DNA from: Pedobacter sp.
GTDB lineage: Bacteria > Desulfobacterota > Desulfuromonadia > Desulfuromonadales > Syntrophotaleaceae
Direction of reading: 5' to 3'
DNA: 64,000 bases
Assembly: GCA_050253415.1 (NCBI GenBank)
Contig: JBFWJC010000005.1
Coordinates: 1-64,000, forward strand
Made by a program: the position numbers and the translations under genes. Below the pieces are notes generated by a model. That model was not told the origin of the DNA and made no database searches. It saw only the letters and a list, made by a program, of their open reading frames with translations. This document shows, piece after piece, positions 3,418 to 32,276 of the stretch (positions are counted from its first letter, which is position 1; each line of letters starts with the position of its first letter).

Positions 3418-3434
3418 TTATGGGAAATAAAATA

Positions 3435-11277: not shown

Positions 11278-11674
11278 TAGTAGCTTGGAAGGTCGCCATC
11301 ATCCATTAATGCATAATGAGGCCAGGGAAAATCCTCCCCAATGTCGGTTTCAACGCCAACCCCTTTCTCAACTTCTAAAAAGTTCTACATGCTTCTACAT
11401 AGGTGGAAAGAGTTCAGGAGAAGAGCAGCTTTAGGACTGCTTTTCCTTTGTTTTTCATAAAGCCATCACAGGACCATTGATTTCGGTAAATATTCATGAC
11501 AACCCCCTCCGTCTGGAGAGTTCATCCCAGGCAAAAAGGAGGCAGTCATGGGAATGAGCATTGAATCGCCCCTAGGTCTCTAGACACTCCTGGCATGTGC
11601 GCCCCGACGAGGGCAGAAGTGTCCTACATATTGTTTCATATTGTTTACAGGGATTAGATGAGGCTGAAAATCAA

Positions 11675-11810
11675 ATAATTACGACTCCTGCAATATGAGA
11701 AAACTCCGCCTGGCGAACCGGACGGGGTTTTTGTGTTTTGGAACTCGTACAATGCGAGAAAATCCCACCAGGAGGTCCGGAAGGAGATTCTATGCTTTAG
11801 AACTCCTGCG
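11675..11810 (+). repeat. Tandem module junctions J5 and J6
   Basis: ATAATTA-cgactcc-TGCAAT + hairpin, then gaactcg-TACAAT-GCGAGAAAATCCC...GCTTTAGAACTCC; the second copy overlaps the stop codon of the adjacent CDS. Confidence 0.85.
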
Positions 11811-14800
11811 TGGTGTAAAAATCAAAAGCTTCACGTATTTGCGCTCGAAGGTAGTTATTATCCCATGGTTTAGTCAGGAATCTATAGGGCATACATTCAT
11901 TGATTGCCTCCATCACCGTCGGAAGGTCGGCATACCCTGAAAGAATCAGGCGTACGGTTTCGGGATACATAGCCTTAACCCGCCTAAGAAATTCGGTACC
12001 GCGCATGTTCGGCATACACTGGCCGCTGATCAAGACCTGTACTTCATTTTGGGCAAGAATTTCAAAACCCTCCAGAGGGGACGCTGCCGTAAGAACTCGA
12101 TAGTCATCTTCGAGCAAGAGTCTTTGCAAGGCGTAGAGGATATGTGGCTCATCATCCACAATGAGTATTGTGGGCTTATCAGGACCTTCTGCGACACCAT
12201 CTAAGGACTTACCCTCATGCAATAGGGCCGCAAAAGCCTCCCCAGATACAGGTTCACTAAAATAAAACCCCTGTATTTCGTCGCAGCCATTTTGTTTGAG
12301 ATAACCCAATTGCGCTTCTGTTTCGACTCCTTCAGCTACAACCTTGAGCCGCATGCGATGGCCTAAAGCAATGATCGAGGTAGCGATCATTGCCGCATCC
12401 GGATCGGTGGTGATGTTGTTGATGAAAGACCGGTCGATTTTCAGGCAGTCGATGGGGAAACGACTCAAGTATGCCAAACTGGAATATCCGGTGCCGAAAT
12501 CGTCCAGGGAAAGATGGATGCCAAGCTGTTTGAGCCCGGTCATGAGGGAAACTGCTTGGTCGGGGTCGTCCATAAGCATGCTTTCGGTCAGTTCCAGCTC
12601 AAGCAGATGAGGTTGCAACCTCGTTTCCATTAAAATCTTACGAATCCTCGTTGCCAACTCGTTTTTGCGCAACTGCCGAGCGGAGAGATTTACCGCGACC
12701 CGCTGTGCTGGCAAACCCGCGTCCTGCCAAGCCTTGTTTTGTCGGCAGGCCTCTTTTAGCACCCAGTTGCCGATCGGAATGATCAACCCCGTCTCCTCGG
12801 CCAAAGGGATAAATTCGGTCGGCGGGACCATTCCTCGCTGTGGGCAATCCCAACGAATCAAGGCCTCGCAACCGATGATTTGTCCGCTTTTCAGGCTGAC
12901 CTTGGGTTGATAGTATAAACAGAACTCACCGCGTTTGAGAGCTTGACGCAGGCCGCTTTCGAGCTCCAGAGCGTATTGAGCTCGCAGGTTCATCGCGGGG
13001 GAATAAAATGCAACCAAGTTGCCTCCACCCTTTTTTGCCCGCCCCAGGGCGAGGTCGGCGTGACGGAGAAGGTTCTCGACGTCGTCGCTATCTCGGGGGT
13101 AAAGGCTGATGCCGAGGCTGGCGGTCAGAGTAATCTTGTGTGCGTCGATCTCGAAGGGTTTGCTCAGATGGCGGAGAATTTTGTTGGTAACTAGGCGTAC
13201 GTCATCCTCATCGGCTATATCCGTCAGCAGTATAGCAAACTCGTCCCCCTCCATTCGGGCCACGGTATCTCCCTCTCGCACGGCCTGCTGGAGGTGCTCG
13301 GCTATGGCACACAGCAATCGGTCGCCTGAAGCATGGCCAAGGGTATCGGTAATCAACTTGAAGCGGTCTATGTTCAGCAATACCACAGCCACCAGGCGGC
13401 CGGAGCGACTGACGTAATGCAGCGATTGTTTTAAGCGATCCAGCAATAGCGTGCGGTTGGGCAGCCCGGTCAGCTCATCATGATAGGCCAGGTACTCCAG
13501 GCGTGCCTGGGCTTCCTTTTTGTCCGTAATATCCTGAATGATGCCGACGCCGAAGCCTTGCCCATCCGGACCACCGGGAACCCAGACCCCGGTAACCTCG
13601 GCCCAAACAGCCGCACCGTCCTTTCGCAAAAAACGTCTTAAAAAGGTAACTTGCGATTCGTTGTTGCCCATAGCCGCCAGCAACTGGCATGGCTGATCGG
13701 CATCATCGGGATGAAACAATCGCTGAACCTTGCCGGCTTTCAATTCGTCCAGCGAGTATCCGAGAAGGGAGCAGAAAGCCGGGTTGGCATCCATGATCCG
13801 CCCGTTCTTTGCGATCACCTTCATGCCCACTCCCGATTTTTCAAAAATGCTACGGAACCTCTCCTCGCTTTCGGAGAGTTTCTCCATGGCCTGTTTCTGC
13901 TCGGTCAGATCGACCATTGAGCCGACATAGCGCGTTAGGTTACCCTTTGAGTCGTAGAGCGGTACGGCGGACGCCTGCACCCAGCGCATTTCGCCGTTGC
14001 GGTGCAGGAGGCGACGCTCCTGTTGCCAGGGGCCTTGTAATTGCCTGCCGTTCTGCCAACGCTTCACAACTCCTTCACGTTCCTCGGGAGGAATAGTGGC
14101 GGTCCATCCCAGTCCCAGACTCTCTTCGGCCGTCAACCCGGTCATGCGCATCCAGGCCGGGTTAGAGTAGGTGTTTTGGCCTTCTGGGCTGAGTTCAAAG
14201 ATGCCGATAGGGGTTGTTTCAGCCAGCGCCTTGAAGCGCTCTTCGCTTTCCTCTAGAGCCATTTTCATCTGAAAATGAGGTGTCATATCTTCGGCCAGCT
14301 CTACAAACCCGGTGCATATCCCCTCCTTATCGAAAACGGGAAACGCCTTGAGTTGGACCTTGAACTGATCACCATTTTCACGGACACCTTCAGTAATCAC
14401 CGTGTGGGGTTGTCCACTGGCCATGGCCTTAACCCCGGGACAATGGCGACAGATCGACGGCCTCCCCTCCAATGCCCGAAAACAGCTTTTACCGATAAAA
14501 TACTCGGGGACTTTTCCAAACATGCTGGCCAGCGATGAATTAACCATCTTAATGCGATGGTCTCTATCGATCAGGGCCAGCCCAACCCCAAGATTCTCCA
14601 CCAGGGCTTTATATAGGAGCTTGGCTGCGCGTAGTTTTTCTTCGGTATGTTTCTGTGGAGAAATATCGTGGATGAAACCGAGGAATAATGGCGAATTGGC
14701 AGTCGCATCGGTGGCCACCCGATTGACCGTGGTGAGACACCAGACAACCGACCCGTTTTTGCAAACGTAGCGCTTTTCATAGGTATGGGACGGCTCCTCA

Positions 14801-15048
14801 CCCAACTGCAAAAGATGAAAAACGGAGGCTGTTTGATCTAGATCGTCGGGATGGGTAATTGCATCGATGCTCATGCCCTGCAGTTCTGCGGGCAAGTAAC
14901 CGAGGTAATCGCAAAAGGCTTGATTGGCGTGAAGAAGCGATCGGTTTTTGTCTGCCACGGCGACGGCAATGGGAAGGTCCGTGATGGCCCGGGGGGAAGC
15001 ACCGCCGGAAGTGGAAACATGTAAAATCAAGTCTGAAGGATCGGACAT
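11797..15048 (-). CDS. Multi-PAS / GGDEF (degenerate EGDEF) / EAL / REC protein, likely phosphodiesterase
   Basis: Four PAS-like repeats; LLNIDRF and RMEGDEF; CEALIRW, DDFGTGYSSL; C-terminal REC whose phospho-Asp position reads ISGQ. Confidence 0.93.
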   Translation of the reverse strand: MSDPSDLILHVSTSGGASPRAITDLPIAVAVADKNRSLLHANQAFCDYLGYLPAELQGMSIDAITHPDDLDQTASVFHLLQLGEEPSHTYEKRYVCKNGSVVWCLTTVNRVATDATANSPLFLGFIHDISPQKHTEEKLRAAKLLYKALVENLGVGLALIDRDHRIKMVNSSLASMFGKVPEYFIGKSCFRALEGRPSICRHCPGVKAMASGQPHTVITEGVRENGDQFKVQLKAFPVFDKEGICTGFVELAEDMTPHFQMKMALEESEERFKALAETTPIGIFELSPEGQNTYSNPAWMRMTGLTAEESLGLGWTATIPPEEREGVVKRWQNGRQLQGPWQQERRLLHRNGEMRWVQASAVPLYDSKGNLTRYVGSMVDLTEQKQAMEKLSESEERFRSIFEKSGVGMKVIAKNGRIMDANPAFCSLLGYSLDELKAGKVQRLFHPDDADQPCQLLAAMGNNESQVTFLRRFLRKDGAAVWAEVTGVWVPGGPDGQGFGVGIIQDITDKKEAQARLEYLAYHDELTGLPNRTLLLDRLKQSLHYVSRSGRLVAVVLLNIDRFKLITDTLGHASGDRLLCAIAEHLQQAVREGDTVARMEGDEFAILLTDIADEDDVRLVTNKILRHLSKPFEIDAHKITLTASLGISLYPRDSDDVENLLRHADLALGRAKKGGGNLVAFYSPAMNLRAQYALELESGLRQALKRGEFCLYYQPKVSLKSGQIIGCEALIRWDCPQRGMVPPTEFIPLAEETGLIIPIGNWVLKEACRQNKAWQDAGLPAQRVAVNLSARQLRKNELATRIRKILMETRLQPHLLELELTESMLMDDPDQAVSLMTGLKQLGIHLSLDDFGTGYSSLAYLSRFPIDCLKIDRSFINNITTDPDAAMIATSIIALGHRMRLKVVAEGVETEAQLGYLKQNGCDEIQGFYFSEPVSGEAFAALLHEGKSLDGVAEGPDKPTILIVDDEPHILYALQRLLLEDDYRVLTAASPLEGFEILAQNEVQVLISGQCMPNMRGTEFLRRVKAMYPETVRLILSGYADLPTVMEAINECMPYRFLTKPWDNNYLRAQIREAFDFYTTQEF

Positions 15049-15335
15049 GCTGTCTCCTTGTTGGGCTCCTCATACCGCAAAAGAAAATATTGTGGGCGAC
15101 TATTGTGTTTTTGTCAGCTTTGCCTCTTGGTCTGGTTGATTAGTGAACGTCAAGTCAATTGCAATCTTTGTGACAAAGAATCAAGTGAGTACGCCTCGGA
15201 TACTAAATAAAAAAATTAAATAAGCTTCAGTATTCCTTAGTTCGGCTGGCATGTCAAAGATCAAATAATTTAATAGTCCAAAATGTAGGGTTCGTATGCT
15301 GTCATACTGAAAGAAAAGACAAAGATGGTTTGAAA

Positions 15336-15412
15336 ATTCCTACATCTCCTGAAATATATGAATCCCCCGTCCGGCGATCCGGACGGGGTTCCTGTGTTTC
15401 AGAACTCGTGAT
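15336..15412 (+). repeat. Module junction J7
   Basis: ATTCCTA-catctcc-TGAAAT, CCCCGTCCGG-CGAT-CCGGACGGGG, TGTGTTTCAGAACTCGTGAT. Confidence 0.88.
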
Positions 15413-15434
15413 TTTTGAGACTATCCTTTCTTCG

Positions 15435-15495
15435 GCTTAACGTTCGAGTTCACGCGCTCCCAGTATGGGCGCCGCCATGCAGCAATTGGTTAGGT
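15435..15495 (-). other. attC site
   Basis: Minus: ACCTAAC-caattgctgca...gtgaactcgaac-GTTAAGC, 61 bp. Confidence 0.85.
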
Positions 15496-15501
15496 GTCCG
15501 A

Positions 15502-15957
15502 TCATCCTACCCCTTCTTGGTCAACACCCCAGCCACCGAAGAGTCTCATTGCCCAGTAGTACAAATACCGCAGCTTAAAGTCTCCTAGCATTTTAAAAAA
15601 CAACTTATCAACTTCTGACTTACGAATTGGTATCGAATCTAGATATTGATACAGCGCATCATGTACCATGGATGCCCTGTAGGTATAAGGCTTACCTGTT
15701 CTGTAATCGAAATGTCCGTCAGGAACTCCAACAACAACAAGATTTAATATGTCGAACTTAGGAGTACAACCGTCCCAAGCGTATCCATTCTGGTTTGCTT
15801 TTACAGTGACAACGCCATCAGTTGATATTGCGAGCCATTCCGAATCAAACGGATTTTGTAATTTCCATCCCGTTTCTTGTTTGTAGTCCTGCATTTCAAC
15901 AAACACGTAAGGGTAGTTTCCCTTTCTAACTTTTTCTCTAGGTTTAGGATAGTTCAT
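15502..15957 (-). CDS. Cassette protein, DUF1353-like
   Basis: YAWDGCTP...ASMVHDALYQY...EVDKLF; start re-set to MNYPKP just after GTTAGGT. Confidence 0.7.
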   Translation of the reverse strand: MNYPKPREKVRKGNYPYVFVEMQDYKQETGWKLQNPFDSEWLAISTDGVVTVKANQNGYAWDGCTPKFDILNLVVVGVPDGHFDYRTGKPYTYRASMVHDALYQYLDSIPIRKSEVDKLFFKMLGDFKLRYLYYWAMRLFGGWGVDQEGVG

Positions 15958-15962
15958 AAGGC

Positions 15963-16018
15963 ACCTAACGGTTTGATAAGCGGGCGCGGTACGCGATCCG
16001 CTTATTTTTTTGTTAAAC
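15963..16018 (-). other. attC site
   Basis: Minus: GTTTAAC-aaaaaaataagcgg...ccgcttatcaaacc-GTTAGGT, 56 bp. Confidence 0.9.
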
Positions 16019-16461
16019 ACCAAAGAATTCAGTCACTTTCTTTTCAAGCCTGAACTCTTCATATTCACTCAAACGCACTCGCTTTTTGACCGAACTTCGT
16101 CTTCTAAACACATGTAGAAATGAAGCCGCTCTTTTGATTCTTGCTGTGCAAGTGAAGCAAACTCTTCGTGCGAAAACAACCAGATACGATTTTCACTGAG
16201 GTCAACTAACGCAACCAGCTCGGCAGGCGAATTGACGCGAAGCCACCAATCGAGTGCGAGCGGACCTTGGCCGCCACCGGGCTTAAGCTTTTCATTGGCC
16301 TTTACCTGGATAGTCAACGCTTTGTTGTGATTTGCAGCAAAAGCGACTAGATCGATGCCCGAGTCAGTGGTCAATGGCGCCGATTCAATGCCAAACTTCA
16401 ATAATTCGTATTGGACAAGAAGTTCTCCTGCCCGACCTATTTGTTGAGTATTCATGCTCAT
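16013..16461 (-). pseudogene. PD-(D/E)XK nuclease-like cassette gene with a 1-nt frameshift near the 3' end (ORF as given stops at 16069)
   Basis: IGRAGE...GIDLVA...IQVKA; one extra A in the A5 run at 16083-16087 extends the frame to the TAA inside the attC R'' box. Confidence 0.65.
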
Positions 16462-16463
16462 GC

Positions 16464-16566
16464 GTTTAACGGTAAAGATCACCGGCGGCAACGTTCAGCT
16501 GAATTATGCAGAGACCCTATCGAGGAGCACTCGTGTATCTCCGTCCGGTGGATCGCCTGGTTCGGC
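16464..16566 (-). other. attC site
   Basis: Minus: GCCGAAC-caggcgatccaccggacgg...ccgccggtgatctttacc-GTTAAAC, 103 bp. Confidence 0.85.
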
Positions 16567-16595
16567 TTTCCGCCATTATTCTACGTCAGCAACAC

Positions 16596-17246
16596 CTACT
16601 TAGGAGTAGAGCCTGGCCCAGCGTCACTCAGACCCTCACACTTGTAGAGCCATTTTTTGATTTCATCCTTATATTTTTCTTTATCGCTATTGAACTTAGA
16701 TTCAGGCACCTCATTATAAAAAAAGTAAAGAAGCAAAAAAACGACTAGCAGCATTACCGTCACAACATACAATTGGGTACTTCCATTCATAATCATAAAG
16801 ACAGATGCAAGAGCGATGAGAAAAATTGAAAAAACCAAGAGAAACAATGCCCTTTTGATAATGGTACGATACTCTACCAAGCATCTCCAAGTATCATCCT
16901 CAGCTGCTTTTAATTCCGCGAGAAATGCAGCCTCAAAGTCGTTTTTATCAAGCTGTGACAGGATTTCTTTCAGTTCAAACCAAGGAAGACTTCCTTTTAT
17001 TGAGAATCTTTTTAGTAAAATTAGTAGTGCTATAATTTGAAAAAGGATAGGGATGATAAATAGTACGATTTTGAAAGCACCATACAATGTAAGACAAAAG
17101 AGGGGCAGAAAAGTGGCAATTATCATCAAGTAATTAATGCTACTTGTTGTAGACGTTTCTCTAACTTCGTAAATGTGCTCATATGAGTTCCACAGTATCG
17201 GTAGTATATCTTTTATTTTGGCATTCCTGTCTCGCTCATCAGTCAT
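16596..17246 (-). CDS. Cassette membrane protein of unknown function (about 4 TM)
   Basis: Two hydrophobic hairpins; flanked by attC sites. Confidence 0.8.
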   Translation of the reverse strand: MTDERDRNAKIKDILPILWNSYEHIYEVRETSTTSSINYLMIIATFLPLFCLTLYGAFKIVLFIIPILFQIIALLILLKRFSIKGSLPWFELKEILSQLDKNDFEAAFLAELKAAEDDTWRCLVEYRTIIKRALFLLVFSIFLIALASVFMIMNGSTQLYVVTVMLLVVFLLLYFFYNEVPESKFNSDKEKYKDEIKKWLYKCEGLSDAGPGSTPK

Positions 17247-17294
17247 GAGGGAATTACTCCTTAATATTCTCTTATCCTAAATTTCATACCTTTT

Positions 17295-17352
17295 GCCGAA
17301 CAGGAAAGTTCAGCGAGAGCCAAAGGCGCGCCGCTGGAATGTCTTGTTGTGT
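17295..17352 (-). other. attC site
   Basis: Minus: ACACAAC-aagacattccagcgg...cgctgaactttcct-GTTCGGC, 58 bp. Confidence 0.85.
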
Positions 17353-17353
17353 G

Positions 17354-17896
17354 CTACCCCGTTAACCCTACGAGAAGAATGGGAGCAGTTAGAACCGGAT
17401 AAAAATTCTCGAGATACCATTTTGCTATTTCATATACGACCATGGAGTTTCCGTCTTTGGGTGAAACAATTTTTGCAAAATCCTTAGTGGGGCAGATGTA
17501 GACCCCCACATTGATCACGTTTTTTACTTCTGCCGCCGCCTGCAACCTGAGAAGGTCACCACCGATAAAAGAGCGGTGATTGAACGCCACATCGATACCA
17601 ATGTTACGCTTCCAGAAGTCAATTGCGAGATCATTGCCAGAGTCGTTAAAGACATTCTTTTCAGTTTCCCAGCCGCGAGTCCCGAACTCTTGTCGGAATA
17701 ACGCATTAATGGTTGACTGTTTACCTTGAGCTTCCCGCTTGCCTAACGCAATACGCCGTTGATTTTCATCCGCAAACTCTTTTAAGACGGTTTCGAATGA
17801 GATAGTACCGATTACTTCGTCAATCTCTTGTTTAAGTGCGTAATCAGAGTTGAGGATAATGTCGGCAAATCGATGTGGGAATGTTTGGTACTGCAT
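17354..17896 (-). CDS. BglII/BstYI-like restriction endonuclease-fold protein (cassette)
   Basis: QSTINALF...GWETE...IDFWK...IDVAF...DLLRL...INVGVYI pattern. Confidence 0.7.
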   Translation of the reverse strand: MQYQTFPHRFADIILNSDYALKQEIDEVIGTISFETVLKEFADENQRRIALGKREAQGKQSTINALFRQEFGTRGWETEKNVFNDSGNDLAIDFWKRNIGIDVAFNHRSFIGGDLLRLQAAAEVKNVINVGVYICPTKDFAKIVSPKDGNSMVVYEIAKWYLENFYPVLTAPILLVGLTG

Positions 17897-17908
17897 TTCA
17901 TTTCATCC

Positions 17909-18026
17909 TATGAACGGTTCATGATAACCGGCGGCGATGCGAACTTATGCTCCCCACTTCAATTTTTGTTTTGCTTTTCAATTTTGCACAGCCGTATTTT
18001 CCGTACGGTTGATTTTCTGGTTAGCC
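17909..18026 (-). other. attC site
   Basis: Minus: GGCTAAC-cagaaaatcaaccgtacgg...ccgccggttatcatgaacc-GTTCATA, 118 bp. Confidence 0.8.
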
Positions 18027-18030
18027 ATGT

Positions 18031-18879
18031 TTATTTTTGTTTAACCTTTTTTTCAATTAAAACTATAAGCTCTTTTGCATACTTCTCTGCCGATTCTTGA
18101 GTATTACAGTCCTTGGCTTTAACCCTTTCAACCAGCACCCCTTCGTCTTGGAAAGGCTTGATTCTATAATGGGCATCTGCTGGTGATTCCTTATGAAAGG
18201 CTTTGCCGTCAACCTCTACAAATAGGACTACTCCATCTTTCAAAAGGACAAAGTCGGGCTCGACCCTTGAAAAATTTTCCCCTCCAATTATGAACACTGG
18301 CAAAGGGGCAAATGGAATGCCCGTTTTTTTTAGTGCCTTATAAAGTAAAATTTCCGGTTCAGACCTAAATAACAAACCCTCATATTCAATTTTTGCGACA
18401 TTTCTACTGTGAGCACGACCTTGATTGTTTATTTCAGAATAATCTTTATTTTTGGATAGGCTAGGACTCAAAGGCTCTTTGGGAAGGGGCAGACCCTCTT
18501 CACATAATTGCAAGAGTTCATACTCATGATTTATTTTTTTAAGCTTGTAACCATCGAGGCACAAGTGTTCATTTAGAAAATTAACTGCGTCCTCTATGTT
18601 GAAACCAGTTCCAAGAAAGTGCCTTGGGTCTACTGCAGTTTCTATTACTTCCTTAAATATTTGTTTTCCATTCAGTTCTTTTAGTTTGTTTTCTGCATAT
18701 TCCCACCTTGATGGGAACGAGTTCCCATAAGTTTCATTAAGTCCGAATTGATTGAAAAATTCAACGAGAGCCGGGCCAGATCGATATGGGGCCAAGGAAC
18801 TGTCAGGGCGGACAGGGTCTCCAGTAATTAGTTTTTGTATCCCGGTAATTGTAAGATTATCTACTTTTACTGGATTCAA
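18031..18879 (-). CDS. Cassette protein: abortive-infection-type N-terminus fused to a Vsr/DUF559-like endonuclease domain
   Basis: YRSGPALVEFFN...YG..FPSRWEY; RSEPEILLY...EPDFVL...VEVDG..FH; TTG start after AAGGAG. Confidence 0.65.
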   Translation of the reverse strand: MNPVKVDNLTITGIQKLITGDPVRPDSSLAPYRSGPALVEFFNQFGLNETYGNSFPSRWEYAENKLKELNGKQIFKEVIETAVDPRHFLGTGFNIEDAVNFLNEHLCLDGYKLKKINHEYELLQLCEEGLPLPKEPLSPSLSKNKDYSEINNQGRAHSRNVAKIEYEGLLFRSEPEILLYKALKKTGIPFAPLPVFIIGGENFSRVEPDFVLLKDGVVLFVEVDGKAFHKESPADAHYRIKPFQDEGVLVERVKAKDCNTQESAEKYAKELIVLIEKKVKQK

Positions 18880-18893
18880 TTTATATTCTCCTT

Positions 18894-19270
18894 GGCTAAC
18901 AGAGATTAGTCGGATCCGCATAAGCCGCCAAACTCAAAGTTCCTGTCCGTCTAACACGCAAAAACAAATACCGGAAACACGACAACTTACTGTTATTACA
19001 TCGGATTCAAGTTGCCTAGCCACTTATTCAGGTGTCTTATGCGGACCCGTATAAAATGCCATTTATATATACCGAAATATGAGGTTTGCAGCTTTCCGAG
19101 TGCCAGTATGTGCGTCATCAAAACTCATGGTAGTCATAGGTAGGTCACATCTGTCTGCCCCCTGATTCCCGAACATCCTTCTCTTTAAAATTTCGATATT
19201 TAAACCTACTCCAATACTACTCAGGTCAGATTATCTGTCAAAGGGCTATTGGTCCTAAAAGTTGTTTCAG
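18894..19270 (-). other. attI-like site and cassette leader, copy 1
   Basis: Lone GTTAGCC core with no upstream R''; leader homologous to 27742-28115; first cassette ends in the complementary GGCTAAC. Confidence 0.75.
19214..19241 (-). promoter_or_regulatory. Candidate Pc-like sigma70 promoter for the cassette array
   Basis: TTGACA-N16-TAGTAT pointing into the array. Confidence 0.5.
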
Positions 19271-19306
19271 GTATTTTTCGACTGGATAAACAAGACTTGG
19301 GCGTAG

Positions 19307-19383
19307 ATTCTTAGAAACCCTGCAATGCGAGAAAACCCCGTCTGGCAATCCGGACGGGGTTTCTGTGTTTCAGGACTAGTTAA
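19307..19383 (+). repeat. Module junction J8 (closest to consensus)
   Basis: ATTCTTA-gaaaccc-TGCAAT-GCGAGAAAACCCCGTCTGG-CAAT-CCGGACGGGGTTTC-TGTGTTTCA; TTGTTTCA box at 19262. Confidence 0.9.
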
Positions 19384-19417
19384 AAATAAGCCGTTATGGG
19401 GGGGCTTGTCTTGGCCC

Positions 19418-19630
19418 TCAAAATCTCCTCTTGCAAGAGCCAAAAATGCCATCCCTCTGGATGCGCTCATTGTAGTTATCGATTGCGGTTTTGTTTTCCT
19501 CAAGCCAGTTTTTGTCTTCTTCGATCATTTCAAGCAAATCGTCTATCGGCTCAGAACGCCCCGCCTTAACGTCTTCCATCGCCTGAATGGTCTTGAGGTC
19601 AACATATTTTTCGCAGTCTGTTTTTACCAT
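19418..19630 (-). CDS. Orphan CcdA-like antitoxin
   Basis: C-terminal WLEENKTAIDNYNERIQRDGIFG..KRRF matches the CcdA family pattern; RBS AAGGAGG; no toxin gene adjacent. Confidence 0.72.
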   Translation of the reverse strand: MVKTDCEKYVDLKTIQAMEDVKAGRSEPIDDLLEMIEEDKNWLEENKTAIDNYNERIQRDGIFGSCKRRF

Positions 19631-19875
19631 CGGTGCCTCCTTAGGGTGCGGACTTTCCATGGCAAATCCTACCATCCCTAGCGCTTGTGCCGCCACCCAT
19701 AATCTGTTGCCGCCCCTAGAAAAACAGCTTCAAGCCAGTATGTCTTCTCTATATCTATTTATTTAATTCCAAGACAGTAGCCGCCATAAAAAACGGTCCG
19801 CCTGGAATACCAGCAGGGCCGTCTTGTTTTATATTTCAGGATGATTTCTGGCTGATCACTGGCTACTTTTCTGCG

Positions 19876-19952
19876 TTTCTCGAAAATCCTGCATTACAAG
19901 AAAACCCCGCTCGGATCGCCAAGCGGGGTTTCTGTGTTTCAGAACTCGTGAT
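19876..19952 (+). repeat. Module junction J9
   Basis: TTTCTCG-aaaatcc-TGCATT, AGAAAACCCCGCTCGG-ATCG-CCAAGCGGGGTTTC, TGTGTTTCAGAACTCGTGAT. Confidence 0.9.
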
Positions 19953-20004
19953 TCGCGAGACAGTCCAAGAATGGAGAACGAGTGCTTAGGAAATTTATGG
20001 CCTT

Positions 20005-21852: not shown

Positions 21853-22312
21853 CCCTGCAACCGGAACACTTAAGCGATTATCCCTATCAGGAAGGAGCGG
21901 CTTTGCGCTAAGAACGTCTGGAAAGTCTTGCCTGACAACAGGGGGAGGGGTTTGTTTAAGGCCTGCTAGTTGGTTTTGATCCGTATAGGCAGCACTAAAA
22001 AACCGGGGTCGAATCAGAATTAATCCGTTTTGAATAGATTCTTGAATAGATACTTTTGCTAATTTCACATGTGTTTCAAGTGGGTTGAGTCTTTTCCTGA
22101 ATAGATACTTGAATAGATTCAACCTGTCAATTGGGCGGGAAGACCTCGAGCTCCAAAAAACCTGCAAAGTGGAAGTCAGCGCTACCACCACGGGATTTGA
22201 CCAGCCCGGTGGTGGTGGTTTTGACTTCCACTTTGTCGGAGACTTGCCGGAAGATGGTGGTTCTGACTCCACCTTTGTCTAGAACAGGCTCCGGGAGCGC
22301 CAACTTATGCGT
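21853..22312 (+). repeat. Non-coding element B, copy 1 (starts at junction core J10)
   Basis: Colinear with 28163-28579; starts at CCCTGCAA; TGAATAGAT direct repeats and inverted copies of the GTCAG motif. Confidence 0.9.
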
Positions 22313-22356
22313 AAACTCTCGCCGCTCCTTGGGGGTGCGATAATCTACCGTAGCTG

Positions 22357-23006
22357 AAGTGGAAGTCGGAACCACCACCTAGGGACCCGGTCGCCCTCAA
22401 ACTGGAAGCTAGAACCACCATCCTCAGCTCCGTTGGCCCTGAAAGTGGGAGTCAGAGCTACCACCTTGGCTATGCATATACGGATAAAACCCGGTCAAGG
22501 CTGGGGCGTTACGCATAGCTTGTCGCGCCTCGTGAGTAATCTGCAGTCGCGCATAACTTGTCGCGTTCAAAGGCTCATATCGCAAAACGTGGAGTCAGAA
22601 CTACCACCCAGACCACTAATCCGGTCAAACGTGAAGTCAGAACCACCATCCCGGGCTTCCTCTGATTTCAAAAGGGAAGTCAGAATCACCACCTGGGGAT
22701 CCGGGCCCTCAAACTGGAAGTCAAAACCACCATCCCAGAGCCAGATCCCGCAGAGAGAGGGGGCAGAGTTGCAACTTCAGCTACGCATAAGTTGTACCGC
22801 TTCGAGCCCGAATATGCTGTAAAAGCAGCTAATTCGCTCCGCTGCCGTCTAAAGTGGGAGTCAGAACTACCACCCTCGGGTCGCGGAAATCCAGGCAAAG
22901 CGGGAACCAGAACTACCACCCAGGCCGCCAATCCGGTCAAACCTGAAGTCAGAACCACCACTTCGAGGTCATTGATTGCAGAAAGTGGGAGTCAGAACTA
23001 CCACCT
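22357..23006 (+). repeat. Non-coding 42-43-bp-period repeat array 2
   Basis: Motif cores at 22365, 22408, 22451, 22594, 22636, 22679, 22720, 22860, 22948, 22991 plus degenerate copies; spacers related to array 1. Confidence 0.9.
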
Positions 23007-26346: not shown

Positions 26347-26420
26347 AGCATTAAAGTCTCGATGGATAGAGGTAAGGTAGACTTAATAAAAGTCTCGGGA
26401 TAACCTGCCCACACATATAT

Positions 26421-26496
26421 TGCCCTATAAAACATGCATTATTAGAAAATCCCGCCTGTCGATCCGGACGGGTCTCTGTATTTTATAACTCGTGAT
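26421..26496 (+). repeat. Module junction J13
   Basis: TGCCCTA-taaaaca-TGCATT, AGAAAATCCCGCCTGT-CGAT-CCGGACGGG, TATTTTA-taactcg-TGAT. Confidence 0.82.
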
Positions 26497-26519
26497 TTAT
26501 AGGACGGGTTTTTCTACGG

Positions 26520-26591
26520 TCTTAACGTAATAGCTGTGCTGCGCGAACGAATCGCAGCGGAGTGAGTGTCAGAACGAGCGCCTTTTTAGGT
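26520..26591 (-). other. attC site with degenerate R'' (ACCTAAA)
   Basis: Minus: ACCTAAA-aaggcgctcgt...gcacagctattac-GTTAAGA; contains the stop codon of the cassette gene. Confidence 0.7.
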
Positions 26592-27245
26592 TGCATTTGC
26601 ATCTTGACCCTCGACTTCCATAAACCAAAATCTACCGTACTTTTGCCAGGCGAGTTCGTATCGTTTTCCTAGCCAAAAATCGATCTCCTTGCCTCCAATT
26701 GGTGTGTTAAATACTTCATCTCCAAAAGTGGCGCCGTCCGACGTATCGTAGCGCCAGCACTTAGCATCTTTTTTGCCGGGTTTAACAAAGCGCTCCATAT
26801 CATTCATAATGAGAGAAACACCCTGATTAGCAATATTCAAATCCACATATCTCTCAAGCAGGTGAAGGTCAAAATAGACATCTTTCATAAATATATCAGT
26901 CGCACCTCGCTTTCCGCCAGATGCGGCTAGCGTTCTGTAGCACTTCATTTCAATAGCAATTTTGTGCTCCCCCCCAGACCACTGGCCTGAGAACATGAGG
27001 TCGATTTCCCTGCTAGAGCCATCAACATTGACGCCAGTTTCTAGTTCCACTTGCAATGCTTCGTTCTCGTGGAAAGTAATGAGTGGCGCAAGCTGTTGAA
27101 GAATGTAGGCGAACTGCAACTGCATTGATGTTTCTTTATTAATCGGGATGAGCCCGCCACCAACCTTGCGAGAGAAAATCAGCCAAGATTTGCTAATTGC
27201 TGCTCGCATGCGTTCCGGTAGGTTTTCTGCTTCGAGATATGGCAT
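26586..27245 (-). CDS. Cassette protein, PD-(D/E)XK nuclease-like
   Basis: NKETSMQLQF...REIDL...IAIEMKCY...DVYFDLHLLE; start re-set to MPYLEA. Confidence 0.65.
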   Translation of the reverse strand: MPYLEAENLPERMRAAISKSWLIFSRKVGGGLIPINKETSMQLQFAYILQQLAPLITFHENEALQVELETGVNVDGSSREIDLMFSGQWSGGEHKIAIEMKCYRTLAASGGKRGATDIFMKDVYFDLHLLERYVDLNIANQGVSLIMNDMERFVKPGKKDAKCWRYDTSDGATFGDEVFNTPIGGKEIDFWLGKRYELAWQKYGRFWFMEVEGQDANAT

Positions 27246-27259
27246 TTTTTTCCTCTGCA

Positions 27260-27323
27260 ACCTAACGTCGCGGCTCACAGGCCGCGAGGTACGAGTGGTC
27301 CTAGTGCAGCCGCTTTGTTAGGC
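27260..27323 (-). other. attC site
   Basis: Minus: GCCTAAC-aaagcggctgcac...gtgagccgcgac-GTTAGGT, 64 bp. Confidence 0.9.
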
Positions 27324-27327
27324 GCCT

Positions 27328-27735
27328 TTACGACGCAGCAATAAACAAAGAAATTATGGAAATAATTATTGATAAAACGGCAATGCTTGTAGCCAGTTTA
27401 AATTTTTTATTTTCTTCTCTTAATTCTGCAAGCACAGATGCCATATAGGGAAAGTTAACGCAATGCATTTCACCATCGGCGAAATTTAGTGCGAAAAGCG
27501 GAACTTTAGTTCCATCTTCGTTTGTGTAACCGTACTTTTTCTCTAAATGATAGTACAGGCGGCCAAAAACGATATTTCCTTCGGCTTTTAAGCATTCTGC
27601 AATTTTGGAAATTTCAATAGGAACGTAATTTTTTGTACTTCGATTTGGATTGTCTGGTGTGTGAGATTCGTAAAAGGCAAAGTAACGCTTATAAATTTCA
27701 TTCAATATTTTAAGATCTGTAGGTATTTTTTTCAT
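27328..27735 (-). CDS. Cassette protein with a C-terminal TM helix
   Basis: 135 aa, AT-rich, bounded by core site and attC. Confidence 0.8.
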   Translation of the reverse strand: MKKIPTDLKILNEIYKRYFAFYESHTPDNPNRSTKNYVPIEISKIAECLKAEGNIVFGRLYYHLEKKYGYTNEDGTKVPLFALNFADGEMHCVNFPYMASVLAELREENKKFKLATSIAVLSIIISIISLFIAAS

Positions 27736-27741
27736 TTTTAC

Positions 27742-28115
27742 GCCTAACAGTAAATGGGCGGATCCGTATAAACCGCCGAGTTCTAAGTTTCTGTCAGCCT
27801 ATCAAACTAAACAGCAAACACATGAAATTAGGTCAATTTACTGTTATTGCTGTGGTTTTAAATCGATGAGCTACATATTAAGGCGGTATATATGGATCCA
27901 CATAAGACACCCTTTACATATGATAAAATATGCGTTTCCCGACTTCTGAGAACCAAGCGGGACATCAGTCGAAACCCATGGCAGTAGCAAACCAACCAAA
28001 CGGATTTATTCATGACCTCCGGCTACATTCCCATAAAAACCAACAAATTTACGACCTCCAATATTCTACAGATGGGTGGATATGTAAAGGGTTTACTGTC
28101 CTAAAAGTTGTTTCA
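27742..28115 (-). other. attI-like site and cassette leader, copy 2
   Basis: Lone GTTAGGC core; shares GGATCCG(C/T)ATAA.CCGCC, TTACTGTTATT, a GGATCC-centred dyad and GTCCTAAAAGTTGTTTCA with copy 1. Confidence 0.75.
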
Positions 28116-28162
28116 CATATATTCGGGGGCAAGGGGAACACTTTTTTGGACATTCTTACATT

Positions 28163-28579
28163 CCCTGCAATCCGGAACACTTAAGCGATCATCCCTACCA
28201 GGAAGGAGCGGAACGGCTGGACAGTCTTGCCTGACAACGGGGGGAGGGGGTTGTTTAAGCTCTCCTAGTTGGTTTTGGTCCGAATAGGCAGCACTAAAAA
28301 ACTGGGGTTGAATCAGAATAAATCCGTTTTGAATAGATTCTTGAATAGATTCTTGAATAGATACTTTTGCTAATTTCACCTGTGTTTCAAGTATGTTGAG
28401 TTTTTTTTGAATAGATAATGAATAGATTCAACCTGTCAATTCTGCGGAAGAGCTCGAGCTCCCAAAAAACCTACAAAGTGGGAGTCAGTGCAACCACCAC
28501 GGGATTTGACCAGCCAAGGGGTGGTGGTTCTGACTCCACCTTTGTCTAGAATAGGCTCCGGGAGCGACAACTTATGCGT
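28163..28579 (+). repeat. Non-coding element B, copy 2 (starts at junction core J14, ATTCTTA-cattccc-TGCAAT at 28152-28171)
   Basis: Colinear with 21853-22312; lacks one inverted GTCAG unit and has one extra 12-bp TGAATAGAT unit. Confidence 0.9.
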
Positions 28580-28764
28580 GAGCTTCCGGCTAACATTCCG
28601 TCACATATGGGCAAGGCCCATATGTTTCCTAGCGGCTTTGGCGTCTATAAGGCAGTTGGAAAAAAACTGTTTTTCTGTCTGGGCTCAACGGGGGAGGTCG
28701 GTAGTTTTAACCCCCTTAAAAATTGCTGAGTTTACACTGGCAAGGCTCAGTAGAAAAAGTGGCT

Positions 28765-29097
28765 TTATCGAGGTCCGTTATTTTCTGATTCCAGGTCGGA
28801 TACATACAAACGGACCCCATTTACGGCCAGGATTTGTTCACTATATTTGTCCCAACTCTCTCTAGCCAAGTCCTGAGCTTCAGCATGATCATGAATCAAG
28901 TAATCGAATTGCAGACAGGCTAGATCTCGATAGTGCCCAAGAGGGATCTCCGGATCTTTGGGAGCACTTTGGAAATAAAATATTAGCGTGTAGTCCGGGA
29001 ACCCTTTCCAACTGCACCAAATCGTATCGTTGACTAAACTGCAGCAAAATACACCTGGCAATCTAGAAAATGTGGTGGTTCTCATAAGATTCTCCAT
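28765..29097 (-). CDS. Hypothetical protein
   Basis: 110-aa ORF co-oriented with neighbours. Confidence 0.45.
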   Translation of the reverse strand: MENLMRTTTFSRLPGVFCCSLVNDTIWCSWKGFPDYTLIFYFQSAPKDPEIPLGHYRDLACLQFDYLIHDHAEAQDLARESWDKYSEQILAVNGVRLYVSDLESENNGPR

Positions 29098-29181
29098 GGT
29101 TCGAGTTCATTTTGGGCGTCCGTGACGTCAGGTTTTAAATGGCCATTTTCCCCCGTACATCATCTCTGGTTGAATCCACGT

Positions 29182-29934
29182 TTAGCTCTGCCAAATCTTT
29201 CCAGTATGAACATCGCAGCCCGTGAGTTGGCCCCCGGCGCCTGCCCCGGTATTCAATGATATTTCAAGCCTCTCCGTTCTCGGATGAAGAATCGGCGTAT
29301 GGCCATGCACGACGCATCTGTTCCAGCCGGTTTTGTATCTCCAAAACCCCTCTCTGCTCCATAGCAACTCATAGGGGTCCTGGTCGGCGATTCTTTTCCC
29401 AGAGGCTATCCCAGCATGCACAAACAAATATTGGTCAGATTCATACCAAAGCTTTGTTGAGGCCAAAAATTTAATGTGCTCCCTCGGAATGGTCTTCAAT
29501 GCCCTGCGGTAGGCGTCAAAGATCTGAGACTGGATCAGACCGTCATATGATTCAATGTCATAGCTCTTTAGCGTCAAATCCCCGTGGTTTTGAAACCATA
29601 GATGGGCGTGCCTGAACTCTGAGATGTCCATCCAGGCTATTTCGCGAGTCCACAATTCTGAAACGGTATAGAGTAAGGGGACGCCCGTTTTGACCGCGGA
29701 TTCAGTCAGGGCATCTAGAAATAATTGTTCATGATTGCCCCTCAGATAAACTGTTTGAGGGAATTGTTTTTGGAAATCGATCAAAAACTCGAGAACGCCG
29801 CGCGAATCGGGACCGCGGTCAATGTAATCACCAAGAAAAACCAACTGGTCTTTTGGGCAGGGATTGATTTTGGCTATGAGGTTCTTGAGTTGATCAATGC
29901 AACCATGAATATCGCCCACTGCGATCAATCGCAT
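29182..29934 (-). CDS. Metallophosphoesterase (PrpA / phage lambda phosphatase-like)
   Basis: GDIHG, GDYIDRG, GNHE, HAG, HGHT motifs. Confidence 0.92.
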   Translation of the reverse strand: MRLIAVGDIHGCIDQLKNLIAKINPCPKDQLVFLGDYIDRGPDSRGVLEFLIDFQKQFPQTVYLRGNHEQLFLDALTESAVKTGVPLLYTVSELWTREIAWMDISEFRHAHLWFQNHGDLTLKSYDIESYDGLIQSQIFDAYRRALKTIPREHIKFLASTKLWYESDQYLFVHAGIASGKRIADQDPYELLWSREGFWRYKTGWNRCVVHGHTPILHPRTERLEISLNTGAGAGGQLTGCDVHTGKIWQS

Positions 29935-29967
29935 ATTGCATCTCCCGATTGCCAATGGTGTGCGTCG

Positions 29968-30216
29968 CTACTTAAGCAAGCGGACTTTTTCGGAAAGGTC
30001 TCCGAGGATAATGGCCGCCAGTTTCTCCATGCCCTCCGAACGGATGTGTAATACCTCCCCCTCTGTTATTTTGCCGCTTTTAGAATTTTCTGCCTTATAA
30101 CGGTAAATATGTTTTCCCAACGTGTCGTACCAACTACCGCTTTGGGGCCCGCAATTATGGCCATATACGTTCACAATTTCGTGATTGTTTATCGCAATCT
30201 TGATGGAAAAGGGCAC
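29968..30216 (-). CDS. Small hypothetical protein
   Basis: GTG start after GGAGG; 82 aa. Confidence 0.5.
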   Translation of the reverse strand: MPFSIKIAINNHEIVNVYGHNCGPQSGSWYDTLGKHIYRYKAENSKSGKITEGEVLHIRSEGMEKLAAIILGDLSEKVRLLK

Positions 30217-30877
30217 TTTGAGGTCCTCCAAAAAATAGAATGACTTTAGAATCGATGAAATCCAAAGGCACTCCAGGGAAGGCAATTTTTGGTGTCTGTG
30301 GCTTTTTAGCGGGCCGTTCCTAGTCTGTGAAAGGTCTCCTAGATATGTTCAGGAGGCCATAACTTTCGCTGCAGGCGGCATGTAATCAGCCTCTGGGGCA
30401 GGGGAACGGTAGCCAAAATAAGCATTTATTCAGACTAGGTCGCATGCAGATTAGCTGTTTTTTGCGCAAAGGGGCGGGGACCCTTTTGGGAACAGGTATG
30501 GGCACACTTCTGGCGGATTGCGACCTCCCTGCCGCCTTCGGGGTGAATATGCTCCTCGACCAATGGCTTTTCTGGCCTTGTCCTCTGCCCCATAACCCTA
30601 TCAATGAAGGCTCCGGAAATCAAGGGGGGTGAATTCAGAAAAACATAGTGAAACCAGGTTGTTATCTAACACTTTTGTTAGGTTGATATCCCGTTGCTGC
30701 ACACTGAAAATTCGAATATCTTTAAATAAGGAATCGCCTCGATACATTAACGTTGATACTTTGGCGACAAGAAAGGGGAGGGTGGGCAAAAGGCGAATCT
30801 CAACATATGCGGAAAAGTTGGGGTTCACCTTTTTGCTTATTTCAAGTTTTATAAATGGTTAGGCGGCAAAACCTTGG

Positions 30878-30947
30878 AGTCTGAGAAACCCTGCAATGTG
30901 AGAAAACCCTGCCTGGCGATCCGGACGTGGTTTCTGTAATTGCAAGT
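30878..30947 (+). repeat. Module junction J15 (last one recognised)
   Basis: AGTCTGA-gaaaccc-TGCAAT-GTGAGAAAACCCTGCCTGG-CGAT-CCGGACGTGGTTTCTGT; abuts the stop codon of the next CDS. Confidence 0.85.
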
Positions 30948-32276
30948 TTATAACTTTCCCCCTTCGTCAACAGATGGCAGAGATAATCGCACGGTAGTTC
31001 CCTGGCCCAGCAAAGAGAAAAACTCGAGTTTGCCGTGATGCTCTCTGACGATGCGTGCAGAAACGGAAAGACCGAGCCCGGTTCCGCCGTCTTGGTGTTT
31101 GGTAGTAAAGAACGGTTCGGTGATATGGGGTAGCACTTCCGGGTCAATACCCTCACCCTCGTCTCGCACCTCTACAACGCAATGCTGGAGGGTTTCGTCG
31201 AAATAAGTCGCTACGAAAACACCACCTTCTTTATCCCCAAGCGCTTGGCAGGCATTGGTAAGGAGGTTGATAACTACCTGTTCCAGTTGTTGAGAAATGC
31301 CATTGACTCTAGGGAGGTCAGGCGCATAGGAAATCTCATAGGAGAGGGTGGACTTCCTGAGTAAATTGCCGGCGAGACGAACCGCAACGCTCACGACTTC
31401 ATTCAGATCTACCAAGCCAAACATTTGTTCCGGTTCCGACTTCACAAACTGCTTCAAGTCCTTGACAATGTCAATGATACGCTTGGTGCTAACCTTCATA
31501 TCGGCAAGCATCTGGCGTATTTCCTTGTCCATTGTGGAGGGATCCATCCCCGCCAGATTTTCGATGTCCTGTTCCTTCAGAAAATGTGAAATAACCGGCA
31601 AAGCCTCCTCGAAGAACTGCGCCAGGAAATCGGTATTGTGCATCAGCACGGCGTTAGGGGTGTTTATTTCATGGGCCACTCCGATCGCCAATTCGCCCAG
31701 CGAAGCCAAGCGCAACGACCGTTCCGCCTGAATCTGCCGGAGTTTTTCAACCCCCATGTGGGTAAGCAGATCCACCATGGCTTTATTAAGCTCCAAGACT
31801 TCAACCACTTTCTGCCGGGAAAGTATGGGCACCTTCTTCAAAGCTTCTAAATAGGCGTTCTCATCAAACCCGAACTGTCGGGCTTGCCGGCGAAAGAATT
31901 CTTCATCCGGGGGCTCATATAAGAACTGTCCAAAAAAAATGTTGGCCAGATGGCAGCCTTCAAACACAAAGGGGATACCGATATCAACTAATCCGTTTTT
32001 GCACCGGGATTCAAGGTACCCGCCTTCCGGCAGGTCAAGTTGTTCATGAAGGTGCCTTGTTAGATTGGTATCGCTCTCATGGCAGCGAGCACGCGTTTCA
32101 GGGTGCTGGCGATGAAATTTTGTGCAGATGTCCTGCCAGCCGGCAGCCACGAGGACCGTTCCGTCAACATCGAGGATTGCTCCGAGAAAACCGGATACTT
32201 TCCAAATCTTGTCCATCAGGTTCTGGACAGCATTAATGTCTACAATATCGGTAAGTTGTAATTTAATGTGTTTCAA
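30948..32276 (-). CDS. PocR-domain sensor histidine kinase
   Basis: GWQDICTKFHR...C..SD...CKNGL..GQF (PocR); VAHEINTP; GTGLGLS. Confidence 0.9.
   Translation of the reverse strand: MKHIKLQLTDIVDINAVQNLMDKIWKVSGFLGAILDVDGTVLVAAGWQDICTKFHRQHPETRARCHESDTNLTRHLHEQLDLPEGGYLESRCKNGLVDIGIPFVFEGCHLANIFFGQFLYEPPDEEFFRRQARQFGFDENAYLEALKKVPILSRQKVVEVLELNKAMVDLLTHMGVEKLRQIQAERSLRLASLGELAIGVAHEINTPNAVLMHNTDFLAQFFEEALPVISHFLKEQDIENLAGMDPSTMDKEIRQMLADMKVSTKRIIDIVKDLKQFVKSEPEQMFGLVDLNEVVSVAVRLAGNLLRKSTLSYEISYAPDLPRVNGISQQLEQVVINLLTNACQALGDKEGGVFVATYFDETLQHCVVEVRDEGEGIDPEVLPHITEPFFTTKHQDGGTGLGLSVSARIVREHHGKLEFFSLLGQGTTVRLSLPSVDEGGKL

Follow-up and report, generated by a model that had tools for sequence, protein, structure and literature searches.

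Integrase-less cassette arrays headed by a probable type-2 attI site fused to a promoter module

What heads an array of integron cassettes that has no integrase gene (intI) of its own? The question is raised by the first 64 kb of contig C5 (JBFWJC010000005.1) of the Pedobacter sp. assembly GCA_050253415.1, a genome of 4.1 Mb in 18 contigs; this stretch of 64,000 nucleotides (nt) is called the window here. Both of its cassette arrays are read on the minus strand. From 19396 to 15327, the locus of array A exhibits a ~100-nt repeat that we call J, a leader of ~430 nt devoid of open reading frames (ORFs), a crossover core, five ORFs each followed by a palindrome, and a second J. The palindromes are imperfect and bounded by ...AAC and GTT.... 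An earlier note on this DNA had described five cassettes, a lone core and a leader without intI, and all of these elements were recovered with small coordinate corrections. The layout recurs with other cassettes, as the note had also observed, in a second locus at 28174-26418, where two ORFs follow a homologous leader (array B). Our comparison with 16 other genomes of the family (17 with the present one) suggests that each locus is probably an integron without an intI gene, consisting of a promoter, an attI-type docking site of type-2 descent, and cassettes.

The cassettes are delimited by attC sites, which we assessed with a covariance model, R1, built from 14 of the 15 attC sites in the array that adjoins intI on contig C1; a near-identical duplicate was omitted. 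In the training sites the R''/L''/L'/R' pairing is 83.6% paired, and 10 of its 19 pairs vary on both sides. Neither the pairing nor the covariation score was matched by any of 500 shuffles, and sliding the partner by 1-3 columns lowered the pairing to 20-46%. A scan of the window with filters off at E<=10 gave 20 matches, among them all seven predicted sites on the predicted strand, four at E<=0.007 window-wide. Outside these seven, 13 matches of 9.5-12.9 bits are spread over the window. All five cassettes of array A (15435-18900, minus strand) are closed by an attC site. The site at 17909-18026 shows 74-81% identity to attC sites in arrays on contigs C1, C2, C8, and C16, a likeness across four other contigs that points to a common pool of cassettes.

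A second line of evidence, independent of R1, comes from the cassette boundaries. A circular cassette brings the TTRRRY half of its own attC, so its 7-nt 5' core should equal the reverse complement of its own R''. The match is 7/7 in five of the seven cassettes (1, 3, 4, 5, and B1, the core of the last being read one base to the left of the scripted position), both first cassettes included; the core of cassette 1, GTTAGCC, is the exact reverse complement of its R'', GGCTAAC. The point at which each leader meets its first cassette has the appearance of a genuine integrase crossover. Removal of the cassettes would restore ...CTG/TTAAG... at both loci (the slash marks the crossover), in agreement with the earlier note: the last attC ends in GTTAAGC in array A and in GTTAAGA in array B, and the sequence downstream is homologous. 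With five and two attC sites on one strand and no intI found, both loci have the composition of attC clusters lacking an integrase (CALINs). Neither is a complete integron, in which intI adjoins attI and the array.

No integrase gene was detected in the window, either in a six-frame search with TIGR02249 (E<=0.001) or by tblastn with four IntI proteins (E<=0.01). The nearest tyrosine recombinase matches, at C5:75898-78080, are generic and reach at most 27 bits against TIGR02249, whose cut-off for integron integrases is 265 bits. The only intact IntI of the genome lies at C1:1750302-1751246 (447.6 bits, an open frame of 336 aa). It is of the divergent layout, here called type-1, and its array holds at least 15 cassettes, up to the contig end. 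In the family, integrases above the cut-off occur in 12 of 17 genomes and in two layouts. At six relatives' type-1 loci (L031-L036), the region upstream of the divergent intI is 78-91% identical to the attI region of the present genome. Five further relatives' loci (L026-L030), here type-2, lack this region and encode an IntI 54-57% identical to that of the present genome; attC sites lie downstream on the strand of intI, with 83 and 23 bits in L027 and weakly in L026 and L030. The same layout, with intI pointing toward attI and the cassettes, has been described for co-directional integrons of Treponema (PMC3607928, cited in part), from which the window loci differ in having no intI and a promoter module in its place.

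Leaders A (18900-19330) and B (27748-28174) are homologous, with ~68% identity over 189 nt by BLAST and an alignment extending over ~430 nt. On sequence comparison, each leader is a chimera of a predicted sigma-70-type promoter module of ~265 nt and an attI-like part of ~170 nt. A third, partial copy of the leader at C5:100268-100532 has the first ~265 nt in common and then diverges; it precedes an ordinary gene (C5:99206-100053), where there is no attI part and no attC nearby. A fourth, shorter piece of the module (15224-15355, nhmmer E 2e-4) precedes the GGDEF-EAL gene at 11797-15048 beside array A. The promoter module is apparently not specific to integrons, being found before ordinary genes as well.

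The attI-like part was recognized through the type-2 integrons of relatives. The last 26-32 nt of leader B match by BLAST, in loci L027, L029, and L030, a sequence that lies 140-180 nt past the intI stop codon on the strand of intI. These loci share the end ...GGATCC.CCCATTTAYTG/TT..., directly after which a cassette begins. A profile built from the final 175 nt of five leader copies (nhmmer) matches the corresponding type-2 stretch over almost its whole length, in L029 with E 1.6e-7 (positions 12-175) and also in L041 (E 6.8e-10) and L027 (E 0.003). In the present 4.1-Mb genome, the same profile finds nothing below E 0.1 besides leaders A and B; a palindromic self-match in leader A has E 0.11. 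Our alignment of leaders and type-2 stretches (A4) has three common blocks: a partly palindromic motif after the intI stop, a middle block, and, ~15 nt short of the crossover, the motif again. The first block is preceded by the promoter module in the leaders and by the end of intI in the type-2 integrons, and the fusion point is identical in leaders A and B and in the copies from two other genomes, G016 and G014 (alignment A4 and profiles). In an integron, attI is the stretch from intI to the first cassette, ending at G/TT; the leaders qualify by homology only, and their crossover falls at the same aligned position. We read the leader as a probable type-2 attI in which intI has been replaced by the promoter module.

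The earlier note had suggested comparing the leaders with the attI of an integrase elsewhere in the genome. The outcome was divided: the leaders match the attI of relatives' co-directional integrons, with the same G/TT, and show no homology to the attI of the genome's own intact IntI. A leader search next to type-1 intI loci likewise gave no match. The exact 20-nt attI end occurs at five loci in public genome contigs, all from metagenome-assembled genomes of Desulfuromonadales or Syntrophotalea. At one of the five a type-2 intI stands directly upstream, at three the promoter module does so with no IntI, and the last is a contig end. This exact motif is narrowly distributed; diverged copies would escape the scan.

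The two outer blocks of alignment A4 are inverted repeats of each other. In leader A, 18906-18929 pairs with 19031-19054 (24 nt, 79%); in leader B, 27745-27755 forms with 27836-27846 a perfect 11-nt inverted repeat that includes the crossover and has its partner 80 nt upstream; the G016 copy has pairs of 9 and 16 nt. The attI-like part could therefore fold somewhat like an attC site. Such long-range repeats would be expected if the leader were itself an ORF-less promoter cassette with an unusual attC, array A then being six cassettes inserted at an attG site, and attG insertion is a known process (10.1101/2022.09.11.507474, cited in part). R1, scanned over the whole window, has no match in the J repeats and none in either leader on the cassette strand, its one leader match being a 10.2-bit hit on the opposite strand of leader B; it is tuned to one attC type, and an odd attC could escape it. 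In relatives the same sequence directly follows intI, where an attI is located by definition, and the 5' end of the leader has no G/TT boundary and continues into J-like sequence. We consider a promoter cassette quite unlikely. With no cassette-strand match of R1 in the leaders and no IntI-like translation in the window, the leaders appear to be neither attC sites nor intI remnants, two identities that the earlier note had named as fatal to its own proposal.

The fusion of promoter module and attI-like part is not confined to the window. We found six copies in four genomes of two genera, in differing surroundings. Five of the six are followed by different cassettes with a confirmed attC; the sixth is shortened, and no attC was detected there. 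The copies of G016, G013, and G014 belong to a sister genus, and leader B is nearer to them (80-84% identity) than to leader A (68%). G014 has an additional shortened copy and G015 a short match of 40 nt, and the leader search found no copy in any of six genomes of the same genus. In all three full-length copies, homology to leader B stops at the crossover (query 438-441 of 441), beyond which the sequence is different; attC sites follow with 74 bits (L039), 58 bits (L038), and 32 bits (L040). The profiles of the promoter module and of attI match together in three further loci. That every copy is fused at the same point speaks for a single origin of the fusion.

These copies bear on the view that the cassettes were inserted, by the attG route, into a chance GTT within the long 5' leader that belongs to an ordinary promoter, and that the attI likeness is a coincidence. 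The target consensus of such insertions is only GWT, the route has been proposed for small CALINs (10.1101/2022.09.11.507474, cited in part), and the promoter module does serve the ordinary gene at C5:99206-100053. Yet the same nucleotide is used in A, in B, and in the copies of three other genomes, and the homology to intI-adjacent attI extends at profile level over ~165 nt, unlike an attG site; the copy before the ordinary gene, which lacks the attI part, has no attC nearby. Off-target insertion appears highly improbable to us.

A different account sees the loci as local wrecks, complete type-2 integrons that lost intI independently in each place and did not spread as a module. CALINs have indeed been proposed to be degraded integrons (PMC4889954 and PMC9024848, both cited in part), and the genome does hold such a wreck at C2:470321-473668. 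In this decayed co-directional integron, a truncated intI (470321-470593, the C-terminal ~90 aa) is followed by an attI end that carries a mutation at its crossover, and then by a same-strand attC cluster at 471387-473668. Approximately 20 nt upstream of leader B resemble, by eye, a stretch ~55 nt past the stop of this remnant. Another, small remnant of a type-2 intI is found at C4:260647-260778; the remnants show 51-61% identity to type-2 IntI versus 46-50% to the type-1 IntI of the genome. However, the promoter/attI junction is the same across the aligned copies, with the paired profiles in three more loci, a pattern that independent deletions would not be expected to produce. Furthermore, neither A nor B has an IntI-like translation nearby, leader B shares 80-84% identity with copies of another genus in different surroundings, and one genome has both a complete type-2 integron and the platform. 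We regard independent decay as unlikely.

The earlier note had inferred a portable attI platform that spread as a module and was loaded independently. Recurrence, the stop of homology at the crossover in three of three copies, and the different cassettes favor that idea, which we retain in altered form: the attI is probably of type-2 descent, and the promoter is borrowed. In the mechanism we favor, a promoter at 19241-19214 would transcribe leftwards through ~310 nt of leader, across the crossover, into cassette 1 and beyond, while the upstream J hairpin would block read-through and the downstream J hairpin would terminate the transcript. The cassettes would have entered as circles by attI x attC recombination between G and TT (18900/18899 and 27748/27747), for which the circle signature is indirect evidence, with the integrase acting in trans. 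The promoter-attI fusion would have arisen once and then been copied within and between genomes, gaining different cassettes in each place. Docking sites, it would seem, can spread and acquire cassettes apart from the enzyme that serves them.

Which enzyme could serve the docking sites differs between genomes. An intact type-2 intI is carried elsewhere by two of the three other platform genomes, G013 and G014, which makes service in trans plausible in them. In the present genome, the arrays may be relics loaded earlier, or may receive less specific service from the type-1 IntI. Excision in trans by attC x attC recombination is established for CALINs (10.1101/2025.06.18.660453).

Several observations weigh against our interpretation. 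The leaders resemble the attI regions beside intI to a modest degree (32 and 18 bits). L030 has a 32-nt BLAST match only, which the profile does not reach, and neither L026 (E 0.7, elsewhere) nor L028 has a match below E 0.7, L028 stopping 137 nt after intI. The present genome has no intact type-2 intI, only the two remnants. Three of the seven attC matches (10.7-15.5 bits) are non-significant by themselves, and were accepted because they lie at the expected place and on the expected strand. The core matches R'' at 3/7 positions only in cassette 2, and at 6/7 in B2 with its altered R''. Promoter-like matches are no commoner in the region than in shuffled sequence, and the predicted promoter is supported by its conserved position in three copies rather than by match frequency. 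Both arrays are contained in contigs from two sequencing runs of different studies (X1 and X2), which agree with the assembly throughout and have no joint where a cassette is skipped. There is thus no sign of cassette turnover; contigs mask rare variants, and both runs are possibly sources of the assembly. Two other runs (X3 and X4) gave low-depth fragments only.

No clearly empty platform was found either, although the earlier note had proposed looking for empty platforms in relatives. The shortened copy at locus L037 (942-1195, the same stretch as L023) has an internal deletion, a full J before it, and GTTAGCC after it, and the next 2.5 kb hold no attC at E<=1; this copy is perhaps an empty platform, perhaps a degenerate one. 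The segment upstream of leader B (28164-30721) is 89% identical to C1:1395413-1397955 and 90% identical to a counterpart in a same-genus genome. In the C1:1395413 segment and in the G006 counterpart, an insertion sequence borders exactly where leader B begins in the window. The genome G002 has a likely orthologue (88% identity) of the GGDEF-EAL gene with differing neighbors. Neither the segments bordered by insertion sequences nor the G002 locus yields an empty site.

Docking sites apart from intI are also seen for the other integron type. The type-1 attI of the genome's own integron (~128 nt, C1:1751306-1751433) ends in ...TG/TTGGAC, and further copies with 84-89% identity lie at C2:119437-119564 (minus strand), C1:335760-335885 (plus strand), and C3:106416-106531 (plus strand). 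All three have the same G/TT end, an attC cluster behind it, and no intI. Across the 17 genomes, 13 of 23 type-1 attI matches lack an adjoining intI match; the relatives were searched for intI at E<=1e-40, at which remnants can be missed, and some contigs are short. In the closed same-genus genome G005, orphan attI sites at 3565522 and 3556774 are followed by two and seven same-strand attC sites, far from its three intI genes. Judged by these matches, docking sites that head an array without an intI beside them are frequent in the family, and the window loci would be the type-2 version with a promoter added. A wider reading, which we offer tentatively and hold to be doubtful, is that the integron of this family is a distributed system: attI sites of both types would be uncoupled from intI and multiplied around the chromosome, the type-2 copies at least with a promoter of their own, one or a few integrases would load and shuffle cassettes at many expression-ready pads, and the J-flanked pad would itself be transferable across genera. 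If so, many CALINs would be working satellite integrons, not debris.

Class 1 integrons with a truncated intI1 keep attI1 and the promoter Pc, and can be served by another copy. They have a visible remnant and their own promoter, whereas the window loci have no detectable remnant and a promoter from a shared module. CALINs, as described in PMC4889954 (cited in part), have at least two attC sites on one strand and no intI or recognizable pseudogene nearby, like the small window arrays (five and two sites), and may coexist with a complete integron elsewhere in the genome that could act in trans, as here. The window loci differ from them in being headed by an attI homologue and a promoter, a head that recurs in other genomes. 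Cassettes at attG sites and isolated cassettes (SALINs) likewise lie outside complete integrons and are expressed only near a promoter; the attG sites have the GWT consensus only, unlike attI and attC, whereas the window site is an attI homologue reused at the same base (10.1101/2022.09.11.507474, cited in part). Cassettes of the delta-attI type also place attI away from intI, where it still recombined with IntI1 in the study cited, yet they are pieces of attI within the arrays of complete integrons, and here whole attI regions head separate chromosomal arrays (PMC12901181, cited in part). The open-access literature that we searched held nothing relevant on an orphan or solo attI or on an integrase-less integron. 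Neither decay nor off-target insertion seems to fit a conserved, reused attI homologue fused to a foreign promoter.

Integrase-less cassette clusters occur roughly as often as complete integrons, and are usually explained by decay or off-target insertion. Such clusters are rarely examined for docking sites because attI is not known in most integrons; outside class 1 it is poorly described or undescribed, and was not searched for (PMC4889954 and PMC9024848, as far as cited). Here, the docking site is recognizable via relatives, and appears to have been kept, fused to a foreign promoter, copied, and loaded differently each time. If such sites are served in trans, capture and expression of cassettes are not limited to the intI locus, and surveys of intI-linked arrays only would underestimate them. 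The family also offers natural pairs for tests of integrase-attI specificity, with two integrase types, two attI types, and complete and orphan copies.

Table 1. Features of the two cassette loci and of related leader copies (window positions unless a query range is given).
Feature	Position	Strand	Evidence or remark
J upstream of leader A	19298-19396	-	nhmmer E 9.5e-27; scan flags 19333-19362, 13 pairs
Leader A, 5' part (promoter module)	19062-19330	-	nhmmer, six-copy profile, E 1.1e-58
Predicted promoter TTGACA-16-TAGTAT, toward cassettes	19214-19241	-	consensus scan 10/12
Leader A, attI-like part	18900-19070	-	nhmmer with five-copy leader profile, and alignment A4
Crossover core GTTAGCC, array A	18894-18900	-	leader A ends at G 18900; TTAGCC belongs to cassette 1
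Cassette 1	17909-18899	-	ORF 18031-18882, 283 aa; TTG start behind AAGGAG picked by eye
attC of cassette 1	17909-18026	-	R1 35.4 bits, E 9e-7
Cassette 2	17295-17908	-	ORF 17354-17896, 180 aa
attC of cassette 2	17295-17352	-	R1 11.1 bits, E 3.2 window-wide, 0.21 in a 4.1-kb search
Cassette 3	16464-17294	-	ORF 16596-17246, 216 aa; no family found
attC of cassette 3	16464-16566	-	R1 62.1 bits, E 5e-14
Cassette 4	15963-16463	-	ORF 16069-16458, 129 aa
attC of cassette 4	15963-16018	-	R1 28.1 bits, E 8e-5
Cassette 5	15435-15962	-	ORF 15502-15957, 151 aa
attC of cassette 5	15435-15495	-	R1 15.5 bits, E 0.2 window-wide, 0.013 locally; ends GTTAAGC
J directly after array A	15327-15434	-	nhmmer E 1.4e-25
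Predicted promoter of partial copy	15229-15257	-	10/12, homologous position
Leader B, promoter module	27912-28174	-	nhmmer E 1e-78
Predicted promoter, leader B	28060-28088	-	9/12, homologous position
Leader B, attI-like part	27748-27921	-	nhmmer E 3.8e-52
Crossover core GTTAGGC, array B	27742-27748	-
Array B	26520-27747	-	B1 ORF 27328-27735; B2 ORF 26586-27278
attC of cassette B1	27260-27323	-	R1 20.9 bits, E 0.007
attC of cassette B2	26520-26591	-	R1 10.7 bits, E 4; R'' is AAA, AAC expected
J directly after array B	26418-26519	-	nhmmer E 7.5e-23
J copies in the window	100-207, 3338-3434, 11671-11817, 15327-15434, 19298-19396, 19867-19974, 26418-26519, 30870-30977
Leader copy, G016	query 6-441 of 441		84% identity to leader B
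Leader copy, G013	query 20-438 of 441		81% identity to leader B
Leader copy, G014	query 71-440 of 441		80% identity to leader B

Each J repeat that flanks the arrays is a GC-rich hairpin bordered on either side by T-runs, with conserved flanks, and the 3' flank (minus strand) continues into the start of the promoter module. A profile built from the eight window copies (nhmmer) places J at ~20 sites in the genome, about half of them in C5:1-31000 and the others on C1, C2, C4, C7, and further along C5. The earlier note took the J junctions for part of a second cassette system in which the integron is nested; on that account they would be recombination sites, and the platform with its cassettes a single module. 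J does stand on both sides of array A, a half-J and a full J surround array B, the matches are concentrated in C5:1-31000, and a J likewise stands before the leader in copy C and in one sister-genus copy. The copies inspected in the window, however, follow ordinary genes (GGDEF/EAL, TrkH, and a sensor-kinase operon), the family is dispersed over four other contigs, and no recombinase is associated with J in the window. J looks like a two-way intrinsic terminator and promoter-boundary repeat. We consider a second modular system very unlikely, and did not uphold the nesting; recombination between J copies is a possible route by which the platform moved.

Contig C5 itself starts within a repeat: positions 1-184 share 92% identity with 19769-19952. 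The first part of C7 shares 98% identity with 19311-19586, and repeats of this kind are the probable cause of the breaks in the assembly. A small ORF whose C-terminus resembles the CcdA antitoxin (Pfam E 7e-6) lies at 19418-19696 (minus strand), immediately before the J of leader A. Arrays of ~42-nt repeats with a GGAAGTCAGAACCACCACC-like core are found at 2393-3213 and 22347-22963, 19 kb apart, and a hairpin related to these repeats occurs at 22153-22237 and 28462-28546.

Two other explanations of the leader were rejected. A structured RNA is disfavored by RNAalifold, which gave -3.2 kcal/mol with an unfavorable covariation term for six copies. No Rfam family reaches its gathering score at either locus, and a permissive Rfam scan of 18850-19450 gave sub-threshold, chance-level matches only (best P15, 27 bits versus a threshold of 70). 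A coding leader was considered for an 84-aa ORF on the opposite strand of leader B, which has a 79-aa counterpart in one relative; we judged it non-coding because leader A has a stop and, in our reading, the proteins are less alike than the DNA. Elsewhere in the window, which is rich in GGDEF/EAL genes, two c-di-GMP-I riboswitch aptamers at 2081-2155 and 48423-48501 (both minus strand) exceed the Rfam gathering score, and no other Rfam family does so. In locus L012 of the sister genus, the gene of a generic tyrosine recombinase of 334 aa (1452-2456, minus strand) ends ~130 nt before the leader, in the same orientation. We regard it as incidental: it scores 55 bits against the cut-off of 265, has no close homologue near the window, and is not seen at the other copies.

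Contigs of run X3 match the window to points in or beside attC (17946, 27262, and 27340) and then diverge, which could reflect the same cassettes with other neighbors in another sample, or merely common attC sequence. No protein family was found for the products of cassettes 3, 5, B1, and B2. The product of cassette 4 has weak nuclease-like matches (Pfam Mrr_cat_2 E 0.0036, under the cut-off; PADLOC E 3.9e-4). That of cassette 1 belongs to no Pfam or NCBIfam family and has an AbiJ/Stk2-like N-terminal stretch (PADLOC Stk2 E 7e-11, AbiJ E 9e-5). Defense genes in cassettes of chromosomal integrons have already been reported (10.1101/2024.07.02.601686, cited in part). Cassette 2 encodes a BglII-like type II restriction endonuclease (Pfam PF09195 E 7e-18; PADLOC REase_II E 1.8e-6) with no methylase beside it.

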